A stretch of 30,125 nucleotides of DNA from Chlamydiota bacterium (lineage in GTDB: Bacteria > Chlamydiota > Chlamydiia > Chlamydiales > SM23-39): contig JBEHXF010000022.1 of the NCBI GenBank assembly GCA_048498835.1, forward strand, positions 1 to 30,125, given 5' to 3'. The notes beneath the pieces were generated by a model. That model did no database searches and was not told the origin of the DNA. It saw only the letters and a program-made list of their open reading frames with translations. Of the stretch, positions 1 to 13,233 are shown piece after piece; position 1 is the first letter of the stretch, and each line of letters begins with the position of its first letter. The position numbers were made by a program, and so were the translations under genes.

Positions 1-16
1 TCTTCCGAAATATTAA

Positions 17-1795
17 GAGGATTTCTACCTCGAAGCGCAATATGATGCCTTAGGTCGATTAGATTGGGCTACTAATAGTCTACAAGGCGAAACTCAATAT
101 TCATACGATGGACTCTCTCAACTCTCAAAAGAAAATACTAAAGAATATTCCTTCGATTCGATCGGTAACCCTATCGGAGAAGGCTATGAAGTCAATGATC
201 TGAATCAACTCCAAAGCACTCCAACCAGCCACCTTCTATTCGACCTTAATGGGAATCCCATACAAAAGCTCCCCGAAGACGATCTAGATACCCAATATCA
301 ATTCGATGCTTTAGATCGACTCATCGAAATCAAACAATCCACTAAACTAGTCCGCTACCGCTACGACGGTTTATCTAGGCTTATATCCAAACAAGTCCTT
401 TCTCTCGTAAATAACGATTGGTCTCAAGACGGCCTTCTCTTCTTCATTTTTGAGGGCGAAAGCGAGATCGGCGCATATGATCAAACTGGTAAAATCGTCC
501 AGCTTAAAGTACTCGGCCTTGGGGTGCAAGGAGACATTGGAGCAGCGATAGCTATTGAACTCGATGGAATTCCTTACGCTCCCCTTCAAGACTTCCGCGG
601 CAATATTCTAGCGCTGCAAACTTCTTCCCACCAAATTCTAGAGCAATACAACTATACAGCCTTTGGAGAAGAAGAAAATGCCGATTACCTCAATCCCTGG
701 AGATTTTCGTCCAAACGCTCCGATGAGAACCTCATTTGTTTTGGTAAACGTTTCTACGATCCATCCCTCCAACGCTGGCTTACACCCGATCCTCTCGGAT
801 CTTTAGACGGGCCCAATCTATACGCCTACGTCTGGAATAACCCCACAAACCGCCTCGATGAACTCGGTCTTTTTTCAGACAACGCATATGATCCTAAACC
901 ATATGGAAGAGGTTCATTATCAGAATTAAATGGCTTTAAGATAATTTCTTGCGATGGATGGGTCCATCCCTACCATCCTGACATCTATGTAGGCCAGCAA
1001 GTAACAATATCAGCAACATTAATCGGAAATGCAAATATTACTCTCCAATTTTCCCCCGAAGATATGTCGAGTTTTAATTCCCATTTACGTTCCATGTTCT
1101 CAAATATAGATTGGAATAGTTCATTGCAAGGAAAGGACCAGTCCTCTATTGTGACCCTCGCAATTTTAGTTAATGGCATTAATGTACAACAAAATGAACT
1201 TTTTGACTCAGCCGCTAACTTGCACAAAGAACTAGGGGGACAATGTCCAGTAATTGGTTTTTATAATCGCACTGTAAGTGTTGCAAGTGACATGGCCAGA
1301 ATCGTTATAGAATCTAATGGATTCGACACAACTTCAATTGTGGGTCTTAGACAAGTGCTTTGTTGTGTTATGGATTTTTTTTCTACCACCTGCCCTAATT
1401 ACATAGTATTCTTGGCTGGGCACAGCGAAGGAGGATTAATTATCTACCGCGCAATAGAAGGAATGGATCCAGCGCATAGGCTAATGGCTTCAAGTCATTT
1501 ACACATAAGAACGTTTGGTAGTGTAATGGAAATACCCAAAGTTTTTGGAGTGGATACATTAGATATTTGTTCAACTGCAGATACGGCAGCTATAAGAGCA
1601 AAAAAACTCCTTACTGGAAGCTCCCCACATGGATGTAACGTACAAATGATTCGTTGCATCTCAAGATTTAGGCACAGAACATGGTGGGGTGGACCAGATC
1701 ACAATTTCACTGGACCAACCTATAGTAAGGCCCTAAAAAATAACATTGAAAACCTTAGGACTACATATGAATTCGTATATCAGGGCAATCGTTAG
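17..1795 (+). CDS. rhs: Rhs/YD-repeat protein, 3' part (Rhs core plus C-terminal alpha/beta-hydrolase, DUF687-like, putative lipase/esterase toxin); 5'-incomplete
   Basis: Frame +2 is open from 17 to the TAG at 1793-1795, well upstream of the GTG at 524 in the ORF track. It encodes YD-type repeats (QYDALGRL, YSYDGLSQL, YQFDALDRL, YRYDGLSRL) and the Rhs-associated core (YNYTAFGE...NPWRFSSKR...RFYDPSLQRWLTPDPLG...NLYAYVWNNPTNRLDELGL; DxxGL at 857-871). The tip has GHSEG (1418-1432), STAD and DHNF. There is an in-frame TAA at 14-16. Confidence 0.9.
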   Translation, partial: EDFYLEAQYDALGRLDWATNSLQGETQYSYDGLSQLSKENTKEYSFDSIGNPIGEGYEVNDLNQLQSTPTSHLLFDLNGNPIQKLPEDDLDTQYQFDALDRLIEIKQSTKLVRYRYDGLSRLISKQVLSLVNNDWSQDGLLFFIFEGESEIGAYDQTGKIVQLKVLGLGVQGDIGAAIAIELDGIPYAPLQDFRGNILALQTSSHQILEQYNYTAFGEEENADYLNPWRFSSKRSDENLICFGKRFYDPSLQRWLTPDPLGSLDGPNLYAYVWNNPTNRLDELGLFSDNAYDPKPYGRGSLSELNGFKIISCDGWVHPYHPDIYVGQQVTISATLIGNANITLQFSPEDMSSFNSHLRSMFSNIDWNSSLQGKDQSSIVTLAILVNGINVQQNELFDSAANLHKELGGQCPVIGFYNRTVSVASDMARIVIESNGFDTTSIVGLRQVLCCVMDFFSTTCPNYIVFLAGHSEGGLIIYRAIEGMDPAHRLMASSHLHIRTFGSVMEIPKVFGVDTLDICSTADTAAIRAKKLLTGSSPHGCNVQMIRCISRFRHRTWWGGPDHNFTGPTYSKALKNNIENLRTTYEFVYQGNR

Positions 1796-2333
1796 AACGT
1801 TTTTATTTTTTTTAGGAATGAACACTTATGAACTATATTCAGATCAATATAAATACGTTAAATCTGAAAGAGAAATTTATGCAGATAAGGTAAGTTATGA
1901 GTTTATAGATGAAGTGAGAAAAGAATACTCCCTATCATTAGAAGGATATGGCGGGAGTATGCCTGAAAAAATCGAATCAATTGAAATAATGTTTGAATCG
2001 AAAAACAAGGCAACAATTAACGATGCAAGATGGTTGTTAATTTCTTTAAAAGAAAAGTTCGCGAATAAAATAAATAACAATCAAAAAATCAGACCTTTTT
2101 TAGCTGAATATCCCTTTTCTCTCGCTAGAGCAAAAATATGCATCTCATTTCAAGAAGGAAATGAATCAAATACCGTAGATTATGTCCATGTGGGTAAAAA
2201 CAAAGTATTTTATTGCAAGCTTAATCAAACGGACGGGTCATATGAGCATATGCTTGTGGAATCATTTGACGACGCTCTAAAAGAGTTTGATTCTTCGAAA
2301 ACGCCGTTAATTTTCAATAAATCAATCAAATAG
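1767..2333 (+). CDS. Putative Rhs immunity protein, copy 1 (signal-peptide protein, uncharacterised family)
   Basis: ATG at 1767 with AGGA (1757-1760) 6 nt upstream, preferred over the TTG at 1746; overlaps the Rhs stop by 29 nt. Shares GxSMPxKIE, ARWLLI, KIRxFLxxYPF and NKxxY motifs with copies 2-5. Immunity role is inferred from position. Confidence 0.8.
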   Translation: MNSYIRAIVRTFLFFLGMNTYELYSDQYKYVKSEREIYADKVSYEFIDEVRKEYSLSLEGYGGSMPEKIESIEIMFESKNKATINDARWLLISLKEKFANKINNNQKIRPFLAEYPFSLARAKICISFQEGNESNTVDYVHVGKNKVFYCKLNQTDGSYEHMLVESFDDALKEFDSSKTPLIFNKSIK

Positions 2334-2339
2334 AAATTA

Positions 2340-2910
2340 ATGAAAAAATTAAATCAAACGAAAAAAATTTGGAAAATTATTCCTTTTATTGTGCTGATCA
2401 AAAGCGGGCTTCATGCTAAACCCTACAACTACTTATCTACAGAACGCGAAATTTACGCTGAAAAAGTAAGCAATGAGTTCATCAAGGAAGTCAGCGATGA
2501 ATTTGGGCTTTTGGTAGAAGCATACGGCGGAAGTATGCCTGAAAAAATCGAAAAAATAAATCTAAGATTCCAATTTAACAAGCCAGTTACTGTTGAAGAA
2601 GCGCGATGGCTCTTAATAAATTTAAGAAAAAAATTAGCATATAAAGTAAATGAAAATGAAAAAAATACGTCCGTTTTTAGCTCAATATCCTTTTACTCCA
2701 ATTAGAGCTGATATCGATCTTTCTTTTCCAAAAACAAATAATGCAGATGAAGTAGATTATGTATTTGTAGACAGAAATAAGATTTTCTACAGTAAATACA
2801 ATCAGACAGAAAAAATATACAAAGACATATTAATCGAATCCCTTGATGATACATTAAATCAATACGACGAATCTAAAATACATTTAATTTTTCAAAAAGA
2901 TAAAGTTTAA
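2340..2910 (+). pseudogene. Putative immunity protein, copy 2, split by a +1 frameshift in an A-tract
   Basis: ORFs 2340..2705 and 2650..2910 are the N- and C-halves of one paralogue. The run at 2659-2665 is A7, where copies 1, 4 and 5 have A6. Deleting one A gives a 189-aa full-length protein (...VNENEKIRPFLAQYPF...). Could be a sequencing error. Confidence 0.8.
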
Positions 2911-3629
2911 GATGAAGACATTCAATAAAAAGAAACTAATTACTTGTTTTCTATTTCTTCTTATCGACCAAATCAAAAGTGTGCTTTATGCTAAACCATA
3001 TGAATATGTTCAAAGGCAGGATGAAATATATTTAGACGAGATAAGCGCAAATTTCATAAATGAAGTTGAAAAAGAATTTGGATTATCCCTTCATGCATTT
3101 GGTGCAAGCATGCCCGATAAGATCGAGATGATTAATTTAAGATTTGAATTAGAGAAAGCGGTTACTGTAGAAGAAGCTCGTTGGCTGTTAATCAATTTAA
3201 GAAAAAAACTATCATCCAAAGTAAATGAAAATGGGAAAATACGTAAATTTTTAGCTGAATATCCATTCACACCTGAAAGAGCTAATATCACTCTTTATTT
3301 TCCTGCAAAAAATGGAATAAACAATATAGATTTTGTTCACGTCGGAAAAAATAAAATATATTACTGTAAATACAACGAAAAAGAAGAAAATTACGAGGAT
3401 TTTTTAATCGAACCATTTGATAAAGCGCTAAGTGAATATGACGCTACTCAAATTCCATTAATTTTTCAAAAAAAATAAAGTTTAAGATGAAGACATTCAA
3501 TAAAAAGAAACTAATTACTTGTTTTCTCTTTCTTCTTATCGGCCAAATCAAAAGTGAGCTTTATGCTAAACCATATGAATATGTTCAAAGGCAGGATGAA
3601 ATATATTTAAACGAGATAAGCGCAAATTT
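2900..3629 (+). repeat. 155-bp direct repeat (2900-3054 and 3475-3629) covering the intergenic junction and 5' ends of copies 3 and 4
   Basis: Manual alignment: offset 575 nt, 4 mismatches in 155 bp. Confidence 0.9.
2912..3478 (+). CDS. Putative immunity protein, copy 3
   Basis: 188 aa; Lys-rich N-terminus, hydrophobic stretch and LYA|KPY cleavage-like site; family motifs conserved. Confidence 0.85.
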   Translation: MKTFNKKKLITCFLFLLIDQIKSVLYAKPYEYVQRQDEIYLDEISANFINEVEKEFGLSLHAFGASMPDKIEMINLRFELEKAVTVEEARWLLINLRKKLSSKVNENGKIRKFLAEYPFTPERANITLYFPAKNGINNIDFVHVGKNKIYYCKYNEKEENYEDFLIEPFDKALSEYDATQIPLIFQKK

Positions 3630-4059
3630 TATCCGAGAAGTTGAAAAGGAATTCGGATTATCACTTAATGCTTTTGGCGCAAGCATGCCAGATAAAATTG
3701 AAGCAATAAATTTAAGATTTGAATATGACAAAGCAGTTACCATCCAAGAAGCGCGATGGCTGTTAATTAACTTAAGAAAAAAATTAGTATCCAGAGTAAA
3801 TGAAAACGAAAAAATACGTCCTTTTTTAGCTGAATACCCTTTTACTCCTGCAAGAGCAAATATCTCTCTTTGTTTTCCAAAAGTAAGCAAAATTGAAAAG
3901 GTTGATTTTGTGCACGTAGGCAAAAACAAAATCTTTTATTGTAAATACAATCAGAAAAAACAATCATATGACCATCTCTTAGTCGAGTCACTTGATGACG
4001 CAATAAAAGAATATAATCTATTAAAAATGCCATCAATTTTTAAGACCTCAGCCATATAG
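3487..4059 (+). CDS. Putative immunity protein, copy 4
   Basis: 190 aa; 5' end nearly identical to copy 3; family motifs conserved. Confidence 0.85.
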   Translation: MKTFNKKKLITCFLFLLIGQIKSELYAKPYEYVQRQDEIYLNEISANFIREVEKEFGLSLNAFGASMPDKIEAINLRFEYDKAVTIQEARWLLINLRKKLVSRVNENEKIRPFLAEYPFTPARANISLCFPKVSKIEKVDFVHVGKNKIFYCKYNQKKQSYDHLLVESLDDAIKEYNLLKMPSIFKTSAI

Positions 4060-4065
4060 AAAAAA

Positions 4066-4611
4066 ATGAAAAAATCAAGGTGGCTATTTATATTAGTAAT
4101 ATTTATTGGGCTAATAGAAGCTCGGCTTCATGCTAAACCGTATGAACATATTCCAAGACAGGATGAAATATATTTAGATGAGATAAGCGCTAATTTTATC
4201 CAAGAAGTCAGCGATGAATTTGGGCTTTTGGTAGAAGCATACGGCGGAAGTATGCCTGAAAAAATCGAAAAGATAAACTTAAGATTTCGTTCAAATAAGA
4301 AGACCTCTATCGATGAAGCTCGATGGCTGTTAATTAGTCTCATGCAGAGACTAGCCGAACAAATTAATCAGGATGAAAAAATACGCCCTTTTCTAGTGGA
4401 ATATCCTTTTCCTGCTACAAGGGCAAACATATCGATAAATTTTCTAAAAACATCTTTGGATGAATTAAACACCGTTGACTTTGTTCTTACGGGCAGAAAT
4501 AAGGTATTTTATTGCAAATTCGATCAAGAAGAAGAGTACGAAGACTTACTCGTCGAATCTTTTGATGATGCTTTAAAAGCCCATAAAGAAATAAATTTGA
4601 AGCGCGAATAA
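4066..4611 (+). CDS. Putative immunity protein, copy 5
   Basis: 181 aa; clear Sec-type signal peptide (MKKSRWLFILVIFIGLIEARLHA|KPY); family motifs conserved. Confidence 0.85.
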   Translation: MKKSRWLFILVIFIGLIEARLHAKPYEHIPRQDEIYLDEISANFIQEVSDEFGLLVEAYGGSMPEKIEKINLRFRSNKKTSIDEARWLLISLMQRLAEQINQDEKIRPFLVEYPFPATRANISINFLKTSLDELNTVDFVLTGRNKVFYCKFDQEEEYEDLLVESFDDALKAHKEINLKRE

Positions 4612-4623
4612 ATTTGGAGAAAT

Positions 4624-6108
4624 ATGGATCGACTCATTGGATTATGTGAAAAGTACTGGATGGCAATCGCGGGAAGCGCCCTTATTTTATTCTCGTTAGG
4701 TTATTTCTTATGGTATGCATTCAATATGCCCTGGCTGAGCATAGGCTCAAAAGTCGTATGCTCTTATGCTTTAGCTGGGGGAACATTTGTTGGCGGCATT
4801 CTATTGCATTCCAGATCCAGGACGGGAAGCAATGTTCTATTGGCCATCGGAGGAATCGCTTCGTTCCTTATATCGTATTTAGCGCATGTTTATCTCGGGT
4901 TATTTGACCTGAAAACTACGTTGGTATTTGTCTGCGCTACGATTGTTCCGATAGCCTTAGTTTCTATCCGGTTCAATTCTCAACCACTGATCAGTTTGGC
5001 TACCTTTGGCGGCTTCATTATTCCAGCCTTTATACCCTTGTCTCCAAACGCTTTTCCCGATCTCACTTTTTACATTTTAGCGCTTCAAATTATATTCTTA
5101 GCCTTGGCTGTTAGTTACCAGTGGCCTGTAGTTCTTATGTTAGCTTCTTGCGGCCCTGTGTTATCATTTTTTACGTTTGTCATTGACACTCCTGAATGGT
5201 TTTTCATCCTCGAGTCCGTCTTCTTACTGAGTGCTGTTACACTCGCTATCTTGAAGCGAAATTGGTATCAAAGCGCAATCGTTCCTCTCGCTCTGTGGAT
5301 GCCGGCTACATGGTTGGCGTGCCATGGTGAATATTCATATTGCTGGCCTCTTTTCTCTGTTGGGTTCATTACTTTCTCTTATTTGAGTTACAAGATCAAT
5401 GAAGAAAACCCTTCCAGAGCCACGCGGAGATTTTTATTTGTTTCTGCAGTATTAATCGGCATTTGGATGCCCTGGGCCTTCCCTCCAAAAATGAGTTATT
5501 TATGGAGTGTCGTTTGTGGTAGCGGCCTCATTATGGGAGTCATTTATGCCATTACGAAATATGTAAAAAGACCCACTCTTACTCGGGTGATTCCCCTTCT
5601 TTACATCCACGTTTTTGCTTTTTGCTTTCTTGAAATCTTTCTTTCAGACGAAATTACAAAAAAAATATTTTCTTTTGAGCTATTACTACTAGCTCTAATC
5701 CTTGGAATTTCACAGTTCTTGATTGCAAAAGGTGAGTTTTTTAATCCAAGGAAAACTTGGCAATGGACTCCAGGGATGCTTTCGGCTATTTGCTTACTGA
5801 CCCAATTTTATATGTTAGGGCAACACTATTTCGAATTGCTAGCCTGCCGAAGTTTAGTCCTATTAATTGCTTCTTTTGTTGCAGTTTCCTCATTCTATCT
5901 AAGCAAGAAATATATGAATCAAAACCTGAAGATATTTAGCTATATTCTTTCTGTTATTATTTTCGTTCGTCTATTTCTTTATGAGCTCTGGGAAATGCCG
6001 ATCTTGGCAAAGATGATTACGTTTTTCTTCATCGGAATTATGTTCATTGCAACAGCTTTCATACAGAATAAAGCGAAGACACCCCCTCCAATACCCAACC
6101 AAGAATAG
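4624..6108 (+). CDS. DUF2339-like multi-pass membrane protein
   Basis: 494 aa with many TM segments. N-terminal pattern W..IAG..L...GYFL.YAF...WL...SIRFNSQ...LATFGGF and C-terminal LFLYEL...KMI.FF.IG resemble DUF2339. SD GGAGA at 4616-4620. Confidence 0.7.
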   Translation: MDRLIGLCEKYWMAIAGSALILFSLGYFLWYAFNMPWLSIGSKVVCSYALAGGTFVGGILLHSRSRTGSNVLLAIGGIASFLISYLAHVYLGLFDLKTTLVFVCATIVPIALVSIRFNSQPLISLATFGGFIIPAFIPLSPNAFPDLTFYILALQIIFLALAVSYQWPVVLMLASCGPVLSFFTFVIDTPEWFFILESVFLLSAVTLAILKRNWYQSAIVPLALWMPATWLACHGEYSYCWPLFSVGFITFSYLSYKINEENPSRATRRFLFVSAVLIGIWMPWAFPPKMSYLWSVVCGSGLIMGVIYAITKYVKRPTLTRVIPLLYIHVFAFCFLEIFLSDEITKKIFSFELLLLALILGISQFLIAKGEFFNPRKTWQWTPGMLSAICLLTQFYMLGQHYFELLACRSLVLLIASFVAVSSFYLSKKYMNQNLKIFSYILSVIIFVRLFLYELWEMPILAKMITFFFIGIMFIATAFIQNKAKTPPPIPNQE

Positions 6109-12258: not shown

Positions 12259-13233
12259 CTATTTTTGGAAACGATCCAAATGAATTGATTTTCCTGCTTG
12301 AATGCCAATGAGCGAACCGTTCTCGACCGATTTTCCATTGCATCGAAAGCTGACGATCGGTTTTGCGAAAACGAGCTTGGCTTCTGCATCATGGCTGGGA
12401 CGGATGACGACACGCCGAATGAGTCCTTTGGTCCACTCTAAATCGATCTCGCCCAAACCACTTACGCACAGATCGGTCGATCGTCCGCAATCCCACTCTT
12501 TGGGGAGGTGAGGCAAAATACGGATGATTGGATTATTTTCTTCGATCAGAAAGCTTCGGATCGTCTGATAACTCTTTGTGAGCAGAGAAAGCGGATCGCC
12601 GCTCGTCTCCCCTTCTGGTGAAATCCCGCGGTGTTTTTCATCTTTGAGGTGTGGAATCAACAGATCAGTGAAACCTGCCCGCACAAAGAGATCGAGATTT
12701 GATGCGAGAAGAGAAGCGACTCCCCCTTTTGCTACAGCAACAGGAGGAACTTTTTGTCCGAGCAAAAAAAGAGCCGGTACAATTTCGGCCAAATCCATTC
12801 TGCGCGAGACGAGATCCCAATCCTGCGCCTTCAAATTGCCCAATGAGATTTTTTCTCCATTCGATGGAGATTTAAAGAGGCCGCCGCTTGCGAGGAGGAT
12901 TTTTTCTTTTGCCATCAGGGTTTTGCCGCCCATGATTAAGCCCCCTTTCGGCACTCGATCGATGGCGAGAGTCAACCCCTCTTCCATCGCTTCGAGGCGA
13001 TATTTATAAAGCCCCTCTTTCGCCTGCCCCCATACCCAGACGCAATTTTTTTCGAGATCCAATTGAACCGTAAATTCTTTGATGGGACCGGTGATTTCAA
13101 GAGGTAAATCTAGTCCAGGAAGACGAAGAAGCGCAGGAAAAGGTTGAACAATCCAATTGCTACCGGGAACGATACATTTCATTCCTGGAGTGTGAGAAAA
13201 AGGTCTAATTTTTTCACCGATCACAATGTTCAT
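12259..13233 (-). CDS. Conserved chlamydial protein (CT865-like) with glycoside-hydrolase-like C-terminal beta domain
   Basis: RPFSHTPG N-terminus and position directly upstream of glgB, as in Chlamydia. ILPHLPKEWDCG...IDLEW resembles the LLPALP..W..G C-terminal segment of GH95-type hydrolases. Confidence 0.7.
   Translation of the reverse strand: MNIVIGEKIRPFSHTPGMKCIVPGSNWIVQPFPALLRLPGLDLPLEITGPIKEFTVQLDLEKNCVWVWGQAKEGLYKYRLEAMEEGLTLAIDRVPKGGLIMGGKTLMAKEKILLASGGLFKSPSNGEKISLGNLKAQDWDLVSRRMDLAEIVPALFLLGQKVPPVAVAKGGVASLLASNLDLFVRAGFTDLLIPHLKDEKHRGISPEGETSGDPLSLLTKSYQTIRSFLIEENNPIIRILPHLPKEWDCGRSTDLCVSGLGEIDLEWTKGLIRRVVIRPSHDAEAKLVFAKPIVSFRCNGKSVENGSLIGIQAGKSIHLDRFQK

Follow-up and report, generated by a model that had tools for sequence, protein, structure and literature searches.

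Rhs toxin-immunity systems, in which the Rhs core cleaves itself at its end, are already known. A toxin domain named Tox-ABhydrolase2 was given the motif NG, [DE], [KR], HSxG, D, and H by Zhang et al. (2012; PMC3482391), whose passages on this domain place it on RHS proteins, list the type II secretion system (T2SS) among its export routes and chlamydiae among its phyla, and report no specific lipase relationship. In the same passages, the chlamydial copy is described as lacking an immunity gene and as possibly acting on the host, a Simkania URI toxin with immunity is presented as a rare intracellular case, and most intracellular pathogens are stated not to compete with conspecifics. Polymorphic toxin domains were noted in Protochlamydia by Koenig et al. 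(2019; PMC6520448), who describe it as unknown how, in amoebae, a co-infecting bacterium is suppressed by chlamydial symbionts and mention polymorphic toxins among the possible means. Chlamydial Rhs genes are also included in tables of PMC2811131 and PMC4989314.

Here, we describe a locus at the start of contig C22 (JBEHXF010000022.1) of a Chlamydiota bacterium (GCA_048498835.1, designated G000; 1.97 Mb, 96.9% complete), of which a stretch of 30,125 nucleotides was analyzed as a whole (the window). A reading frame that is open over positions 17-1795 of the + strand encodes the C-terminal part of an Rhs protein ending in a hydrolase domain (the tip) and is followed directly by five homologous genes encoding putative exported proteins (the partners). 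The tip contains all six elements of the Tox-ABhydrolase2 motif in order (N101-G102, D140, R143, H184-S185-x-G187, D237, and H277) and resembles that domain in being carried by an RHS protein, in its chlamydial source, in having T2SS as a candidate export route, and in showing no specific lipase relationship. On the basis of motif and range, the tip is probably Tox-ABhydrolase2, and the toxin domain, which an initial annotation of the window had proposed as new, probably has a name already; no such model was matched in the Pfam scan of the tip. Unlike the Imm-SUKH immunity given in the corresponding passages of PMC3482391, the chlamydial partner is a non-SUKH exported family. In the open-access literature, neither this family nor a chlamydial Rhs-hydrolase/immunity system was found described, and the alignments and neighborhoods of Zhang et al. 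may list the genes; the main texts of two chlamydial genomics papers (PMC8242063 and PMC9723776) contain neither "rhs" nor "toxin".

The serine hydrolase tip and its partner family

Relatives of the tip were identified by searching 1.84 billion representative proteins with phmmer. This search resulted in 149 relatives, 51 of which are at least 1,300 aa long, and after one 2,550-aa repeat protein was dropped, the tip and the other 148 were aligned in 149 rows. The Ser-Asp-His triad suspected from the sequence of the window is conserved throughout the family, with Ser185 present in 145 rows, Asp237 in 147, and His277 in 144; Asn101 and Gly102 are kept in 123 and 125 rows, respectively, with 23 gaps. 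The GHSEG site had been read as a GxSxG motif, and while the site itself is confirmed, its first glycine is not a family feature: Ala is the commonest residue at this position (49 of 149 rows), Gly is outside the top six, and the nucleophile motif of the family is xHSxG. The structure model of the tip, with a predicted local distance difference test (pLDDT) score of 84, is an alpha/beta hydrolase. The best fold matches were Obc1 (Z 14.4, 222 aligned residues, root-mean-square deviation (rmsd) 4.0) and hornet phospholipase A1 (Z 13.5, 211 aligned residues, rmsd 3.6), accompanied by carboxylesterases and cutinases; every top match was an alpha/beta hydrolase and none was outstanding. By fold and conservation, the tip is predicted to be a Ser-Asp-His hydrolase. 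Because its fold matches esterases, cutinases, phospholipase A1, and Obc1 about equally, the terms lipase and membrane-attacking, proposed in the initial annotation, name activities that we infer for the tip.

Other searches with the tip gave little. The Pfam scan yielded only sub-threshold matches to Cutinase and DUF900, and the PDB sequence search only sub-threshold cutinase matches. Word-indexed protein searches, which are too insensitive for this family, returned 2, 2, and 2 matches, and the equally insensitive word-indexed search for longer proteins contained no filamentous-haemagglutinin fusions, which might have connected the tip with Tox-ABhydrolase2, although their absence is weak evidence; single-protein locus scans yielded no relative. 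Six loci (L115-L118, L202, and L203) encode the hydrolase domain on proteins of 460-540 aa without Rhs repeats, two of which match DUF3892 and two of which have a partner behind them, so other carriers of the domain exist.

The five partner paralogues are 48-76% identical in pairwise comparisons, far above chance, which upholds their proposed homology; the accompanying description as five genes of 180-190 aa does not extend to paralogue 2, in which a run of seven A residues at 2659-2665 (six in paralogue 4) leads to separate frames of 121 and 86 aa. Because of this frameshift, which is either that of a pseudogene or an assembly error, only four of the five paralogues are intact. The family could not be assigned to a named domain from the sequence of the window, and the searches bear this out. 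There was no credible Pfam match among 41 members, including to SUKH and Imm families at E 0.01, and no NCBIfam match for 4 partners; the nearest clusters in the ESM Atlas are unnamed and mostly from Chlamydiota. The model of paralogue 1 is confident (pLDDT 94.8), and Foldseek found no match to a solved structure at E 0.001, the best fold match (Z 7.0 over 83 residues) being to a common arrangement. The fold searches gave no clear match, and a weak likeness to ring-building or KH-like domains was not taken as homology. By these sequence and fold comparisons, the partner is an unnamed family and the new element of the locus.

Signal peptides were judged by a hydrophobicity heuristic only. By this heuristic, signal-like N-termini are present at all five partner starts in the window, as had been noted, in 28 of 32 downstream open reading frames (ORFs), and in 41 of 46 full-length Rhs relatives versus 1 of 58 tips. 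Paralogue 1 has an N-terminus similar to that of the only partner encoded beside the closest relative (locus L181), and overall identity to that partner (44-50%) does not separate the paralogues. Given its position and this N-terminal likeness, paralogue 1 is likely the cognate immunity protein. Partners with two tandem domains (~355 aa) are encoded at L012, L013, L019, and L030. At L112:1188-5885 (G055:C1), a 1,565-aa Rhs protein has its core fused in frame to a partner domain without a hydrolase tip, which looks like the result of a deletion across the tip.

Linkage, range, and the relationship to DUF687

Three samples were used to examine the association of tip and partner; they are not independent, because they partly overlap and include kin. 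Of the 30 best tip loci, 28 had enough flanking sequence; with a profile built from G000 proteins alone, a partner was identified directly behind the tip in 26 of these 28. The second sample comprised 23 genomes selected as near-complete, G157 and 22 others with 1-4 contigs; a partner comes next after 44 of their 70 tip hits, and after 27 of the 36 hits located in long frames. The same genomes contain 74 partner hits, of which 44 lie no more than 350 nt from a tip, another 14 lie up to 5 kb downstream, and 16 do neither, so that partners occur mostly downstream of tips (58 of 74) and not away from toxin genes. The third sample consisted of 73 loci matching a partner pattern that was derived from paired partners; a tip is upstream in 61, a contig end in 11, and no tip is present in one, and 35 of the 73 hold at least two partner domains. 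Seven Rhs loci from same-genus genomes whose tips are not hydrolases served as a control, and none encodes the partner family (0 of 7, two having short flanks). On the same Rhs scaffold, an Ntox24-like tip is paired with Imm53 and an RNase with barstar (L192, G183:C81; L197, G281:C16), while Pfam gave no match for five further tips of the genus. Because it carries these two pairs, the Rhs scaffold is a real toxin-immunity platform. Repeated orphan cassettes, each with a tip fragment of 135 or 71 aa and a partner, are found at L205 and L206, and at L204:4822-6291 (G147:C1) a group II intron reverse transcriptase is encoded between two Rhs-hydrolase/partner modules. In 58 triplets, mean identity is 25% for tips, 30% for partners, and 48% for cores; tips and partners thus diverge faster.

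Fourteen of the 16 partner hits away from tips were inspected and comprise nine free-standing genes, two fragments, one Rhs-core fusion, and two partners located behind tips of greater divergence. The free-standing partners (L100, L101, L103, and L106, and also L102, L104, L105, L109, and L111) are mostly lipoprotein-like. Four of them are one or two genes behind a gene with a TGAAGFIG motif, which we take to be epimerase-like, and these partners possibly have a domesticated or ancestral function. Tips without a partner were placed on a quick tree of 115 rows, where they make up 17 rows and are clustered (7 changes versus 16.1 when shuffled). Six of them (L078, L080, L081, L095, L098, and L113) have a YAHS[LIM]GG-like motif and are mostly on Rhs proteins; at least three of the six adjoin the same two housekeeping-type genes, presumably for a metallo-beta-lactamase-fold hydrolase and a peroxiredoxin.

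Across the phylum, the tip profile matched 317 of 400 genomes, with a further genome unscored, and 290 of 401 were matched by the profile of the partner. Most of the 73 partner loci have titles naming Chlamydiae; some are titled Verrucomicrobia, Acidobacteriota, or "bacterium", which are labels only. Family f4 stands apart, with a tip in 1 of 29 genomes, a partner in 1 of 30, and an Rhs core in 0 of 27; from its 1.0-1.2-Mb genomes and DUF687 matches, we infer that f4 is Chlamydiaceae, the vertebrate-pathogen family.

The initial annotation had connected the locus with DUF687-like domains and suggested a function for them. Membership of the tip in DUF687 (PF05095) was rejected, as neither the tip nor G000 has a match while the model matched all five f4 genomes used as a control. 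A remote link is nevertheless supported: hhalign aligned 130 columns of the N-terminal domain of DUF687 with the tip profile (a probability of 48% and, for one comparison, E 1.9e-4), DUF687 is found on 16% of members of the ESM Atlas cluster nearest to the tip, and a 581-aa protein of G157:C7 (L037:307-2049) matches both the tip profile and DUF687. This protein is a possible intermediate and comes from the sole f4 genome that still has tip-partner pairs. The relevant passages of PMC11878206 describe DUF687 proteins as alpha/beta hydrolases without catalytic residues that also have a transmembrane bundle, and those of PMC3048545 place them among the predicted Inc proteins of Chlamydia. The tip, unlike DUF687, has the full triad and no C-terminal transmembrane bundle, and DUF687, unlike the tip, has neither Rhs nor partner. 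A shared origin is plausible on these comparisons, and the proposed link therefore survives in part; because DUF687 lacks catalytic residues, the tip gives it no hydrolase function.

Layout of the locus and the contig junction

The features of the locus are collected in Table 1, and the positions of core and tip agree with the initial annotation, as do the 29-nt overlap of tip and paralogue 1 and the gaps of 6, 1, 8, and 6 nt between the paralogues. Both Rhs models matched over their cut-offs (32.5 bits for TIGR03696). The motif at the core end before the tip is of the PxxxxDxxGL type, with the DLFGL version in 33 of 66 related Rhs proteins. G+C content is 45% in the core, 39% in the tip, and 31% in the partner array, versus 47% in the rest of the window.

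Table 1. Positions in the window of the Rhs-hydrolase gene, its motifs, and the partner genes
Feature	Position	Strand	Basis or remark
Bases differing from contig C3 (19)	1..19	+	in-frame stop 14-16
Bases identical to the final 98 nt of contig C3	20..117	+	
C-terminal 285 aa of Rhs/YD shell and Rhs-associated core	17..871	+	PF05593 E 2e-8; TIGR03696 68.9 bits
DPLG motif	788-799	+	within 17..871
DELGL core-end motif (NPTNRLDELGL), predicted self-cleavage site	857-871	+	motif
307-aa alpha/beta-hydrolase tip	872..1795	+	conservation, model, fold matches
NG of the tip			tip residues 101-102
GHSEG motif	1418-1432	+	
Nucleophile Ser185	1424-1426		tip residue
STAD motif	1571-1582	+	
Asp237	1580-1582		tip residue
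DHNF motif	from 1697	+	
His277	1700-1702		tip residue
Partner paralogue 1, 188 aa	1767..2333	+	29-nt overlap with tip
Partner paralogue 2, frameshifted	2340..2910	+	frames 2340-2705 and 2650-2910
Partner paralogue 3, 188 aa	2912..3478	+	
Partner paralogue 4, 190 aa	3487..4059	+	76% identity to paralogue 3
Partner paralogue 5, 181 aa	4066..4611	+	

The Rhs protein's N-terminal portion appears to be encoded on another contig. The last ~3.8 kb of contig C3 encodes, in frame, ~1,270 aa of N-terminal Rhs sequence that begins like a signal peptide and contains a weak DUF6531 match and RHS repeats. P0006, an 1806-aa protein encoded in L181 and the closest relative, is colinear with the pieces on C3 and C22, sharing 54% identity with the C3 part, 62% with the core, and 54% with the tip; G000 holds one Rhs-associated core only. 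Because of this colinearity and the single core, the likelier reading is that the two pieces form one Rhs gene of ~1,830 aa in all. The 19 bases at the start of the window that differ from C3 represent either a branch in the assembly or the tail of a cassette located upstream.

A second, divergent tip of HSQG type is encoded in G000 on contig C31 (L002; positions 50-928), with a lipoprotein-like partner at 900-1448. This pair has the same 29-nt overlap and lies at a contig start, and no Rhs part was seen there. In the window, a DUF2339 membrane protein is encoded on the same strand 12 nt behind the partner array (4624-6108); it was not found in any of four same-genus genomes in one query that had no positive control, and it is not counted within the toxin-partner system. 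Further downstream (12259-13233), a 324-aa ORF with a C-terminal match to glycoside hydrolase family 95 lies between miaB-like and glgB-like genes.

Explanations of the locus and comparison with known systems

Conservation, fold, and linkage agree with the core of the initial proposal, an Rhs serine-hydrolase toxin with an immunity-like exported partner in Chlamydiae. The explanation that we favor, and hold to be reasonably probable, is that the locus encodes a polymorphic Rhs toxin and an exported immunity family dedicated to it, and that the toxin's main targets are other bacteria, with related chlamydiae in the same host cell as the most plausible ones. The ~1,830-aa Rhs protein, if the contigs are joined correctly, would enter the periplasm via Sec by means of its observed signal-like start and would leave by type II secretion or in vesicles; T2SS F is present in G000, and VipB and PAAR, which mark a type VI secretion system (T6SS), were not found in this 96.9% complete genome, in which controls matched. 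The core would then cut itself after the DELGL motif seen at its end, as Rhs cores do, freeing the 307-aa tip. The tip would act from the periplasmic side, as the export of the immunity proteins suggests, and would hydrolyze an ester in the cell envelope, with a membrane lipid as the most likely substrate. The linked and translationally coupled partner would be exported and bind the tip to block it, and the extra paralogues may cover variant tips of relatives. An unnamed exported family behind most copies, in about three quarters of the sampled Chlamydiota, would point to routine bacterial conflict inside host cells without a T6SS, and the tip-partner pair is a concrete candidate for the suppression of co-infecting bacteria in amoebae.

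Several observations weigh against this explanation. In the 23 genomes, a partner is missing from the position directly after the tip for 26 of the 70 tip hits (for 9 of the 36 located in long frames), and 9 of the 14 inspected partners away from tips are free-standing genes, several beside housekeeping genes. Tip and partner co-vary weakly (partial rho 0.35, versus 0.29 for core and partner), and their nearest neighbors agree in 26 of 58 cases, versus 18 of 58 for core and partner. The six partner-less tips listed above form one clade with a Shimodaira-Hasegawa-like approximate likelihood ratio test (SH-aLRT) value of 99, the fold of the tip singles out no lipase, and a secreted Rhs protein would have to reach the periplasm of another cell without a T6SS. 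In addition, the results in PMC7143554 that concern Waddlia include a 200-kDa signal-peptide Rhs protein listed in a host-cytosol fraction.

This last result would also suit a host-directed effector, whose tip remodels host or inclusion lipids while the exported partner guards the envelope of the producer during Sec passage, and host targeting was proposed for the chlamydial copy in the passages of PMC3482391 cited above. The partner-less Rhs-hydrolase clade in conserved synteny is a candidate host-directed branch, the remote relative DUF687 occurs in predicted inclusion-membrane proteins, and presence in 317 of 400 genomes is unusually persistent for an interchangeable warhead. Self-protection, however, needs one partner and not arrays of two to five diverged copies or orphan cassettes, the barstar and Imm53 pairs use the same scaffold, and f4, read as the vertebrate-pathogen family rich in host effectors, has almost no Rhs cores, tips, or partners. 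We consider a host-directed role rather unlikely. It is more doubtful still that the partner serves as a chaperone or activator in folding, export, or loading of the hydrolase, instead of or besides inhibiting it, and we regard this as improbable: such a role has a precedent in an Enterobacter Tli that, in the results presented in bioRxiv 10.1101/2023.03.28.534661, both activates and neutralizes Tle, and it would accommodate the lipoprotein-like partners that stand free of tips, but partner-less tips retain the nucleophile motif, and orphan partners behind short tip fragments suit defense and not folding.

Compatible with any of these explanations is the reading of the locus itself as an orphan cassette that is silent in this genome: its core and tip would be a fragment located after a different tip absent from the assembly, and only the immunity array would be useful. 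The stop at 14-16, the 19 bases unlike C3, and the contig break at exactly this point would fit, as would the frameshifted paralogue and the truncated core-tip frames found in relatives. Since the catalytic triad is intact, G000 has a single Rhs-associated core, and P0006 is one continuous protein colinear with both pieces, a silent cassette is unlikely here, if less so than a chaperone.

A wider and decidedly tentative proposal builds on the favored reading of an antibacterial toxin. A Sec/T2SS-exported Rhs hydrolase with an immunity protein of new fold could be an ancestral, phylum-wide weapon that environmental Chlamydiae direct at co-infecting bacteria; the vertebrate-pathogen family would have lost it and retained the hydrolase as the inactive, membrane-anchored DUF687 inclusion proteins. 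The tip thereby suggests a possible origin for the Chlamydia-specific DUF687 proteins. If true, the proposal would overturn the view that the toxins kept by intracellular chlamydiae come with no immunity, and it would supply a candidate for how symbionts protect amoebae.

Two further known systems invite comparison. The T6SS pairs Tle1-4/Tli likewise combine a Ser-Asp-His alpha/beta hydrolase with adjacent exported and often duplicated immunity genes, and the tip had been likened to them; membership in a Tle family was rejected, as the tip has no match to DUF2235, Lipase_3, DUF3274, or PGAP1, the models that we take to define Tle1-4, and no T6SS markers were found. The tip further differs from Tle1-4 in being carried on a signal-peptide Rhs protein in a genome in which VipB and PAAR were not found, and in its xHSxG motif. 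A teneurin architecture was matched only below threshold, by TEN_YD-shell in the general Pfam scan, which included no teneurin-directed test, and the passages of PMC13018210 on Sec-signal Rhs and bacterial teneurin-like toxins do not mention "chlamyd". With the toxins described in those passages, the locus shares a YD shell, a variable C-terminal toxin, a downstream immunity gene, and Sec export.

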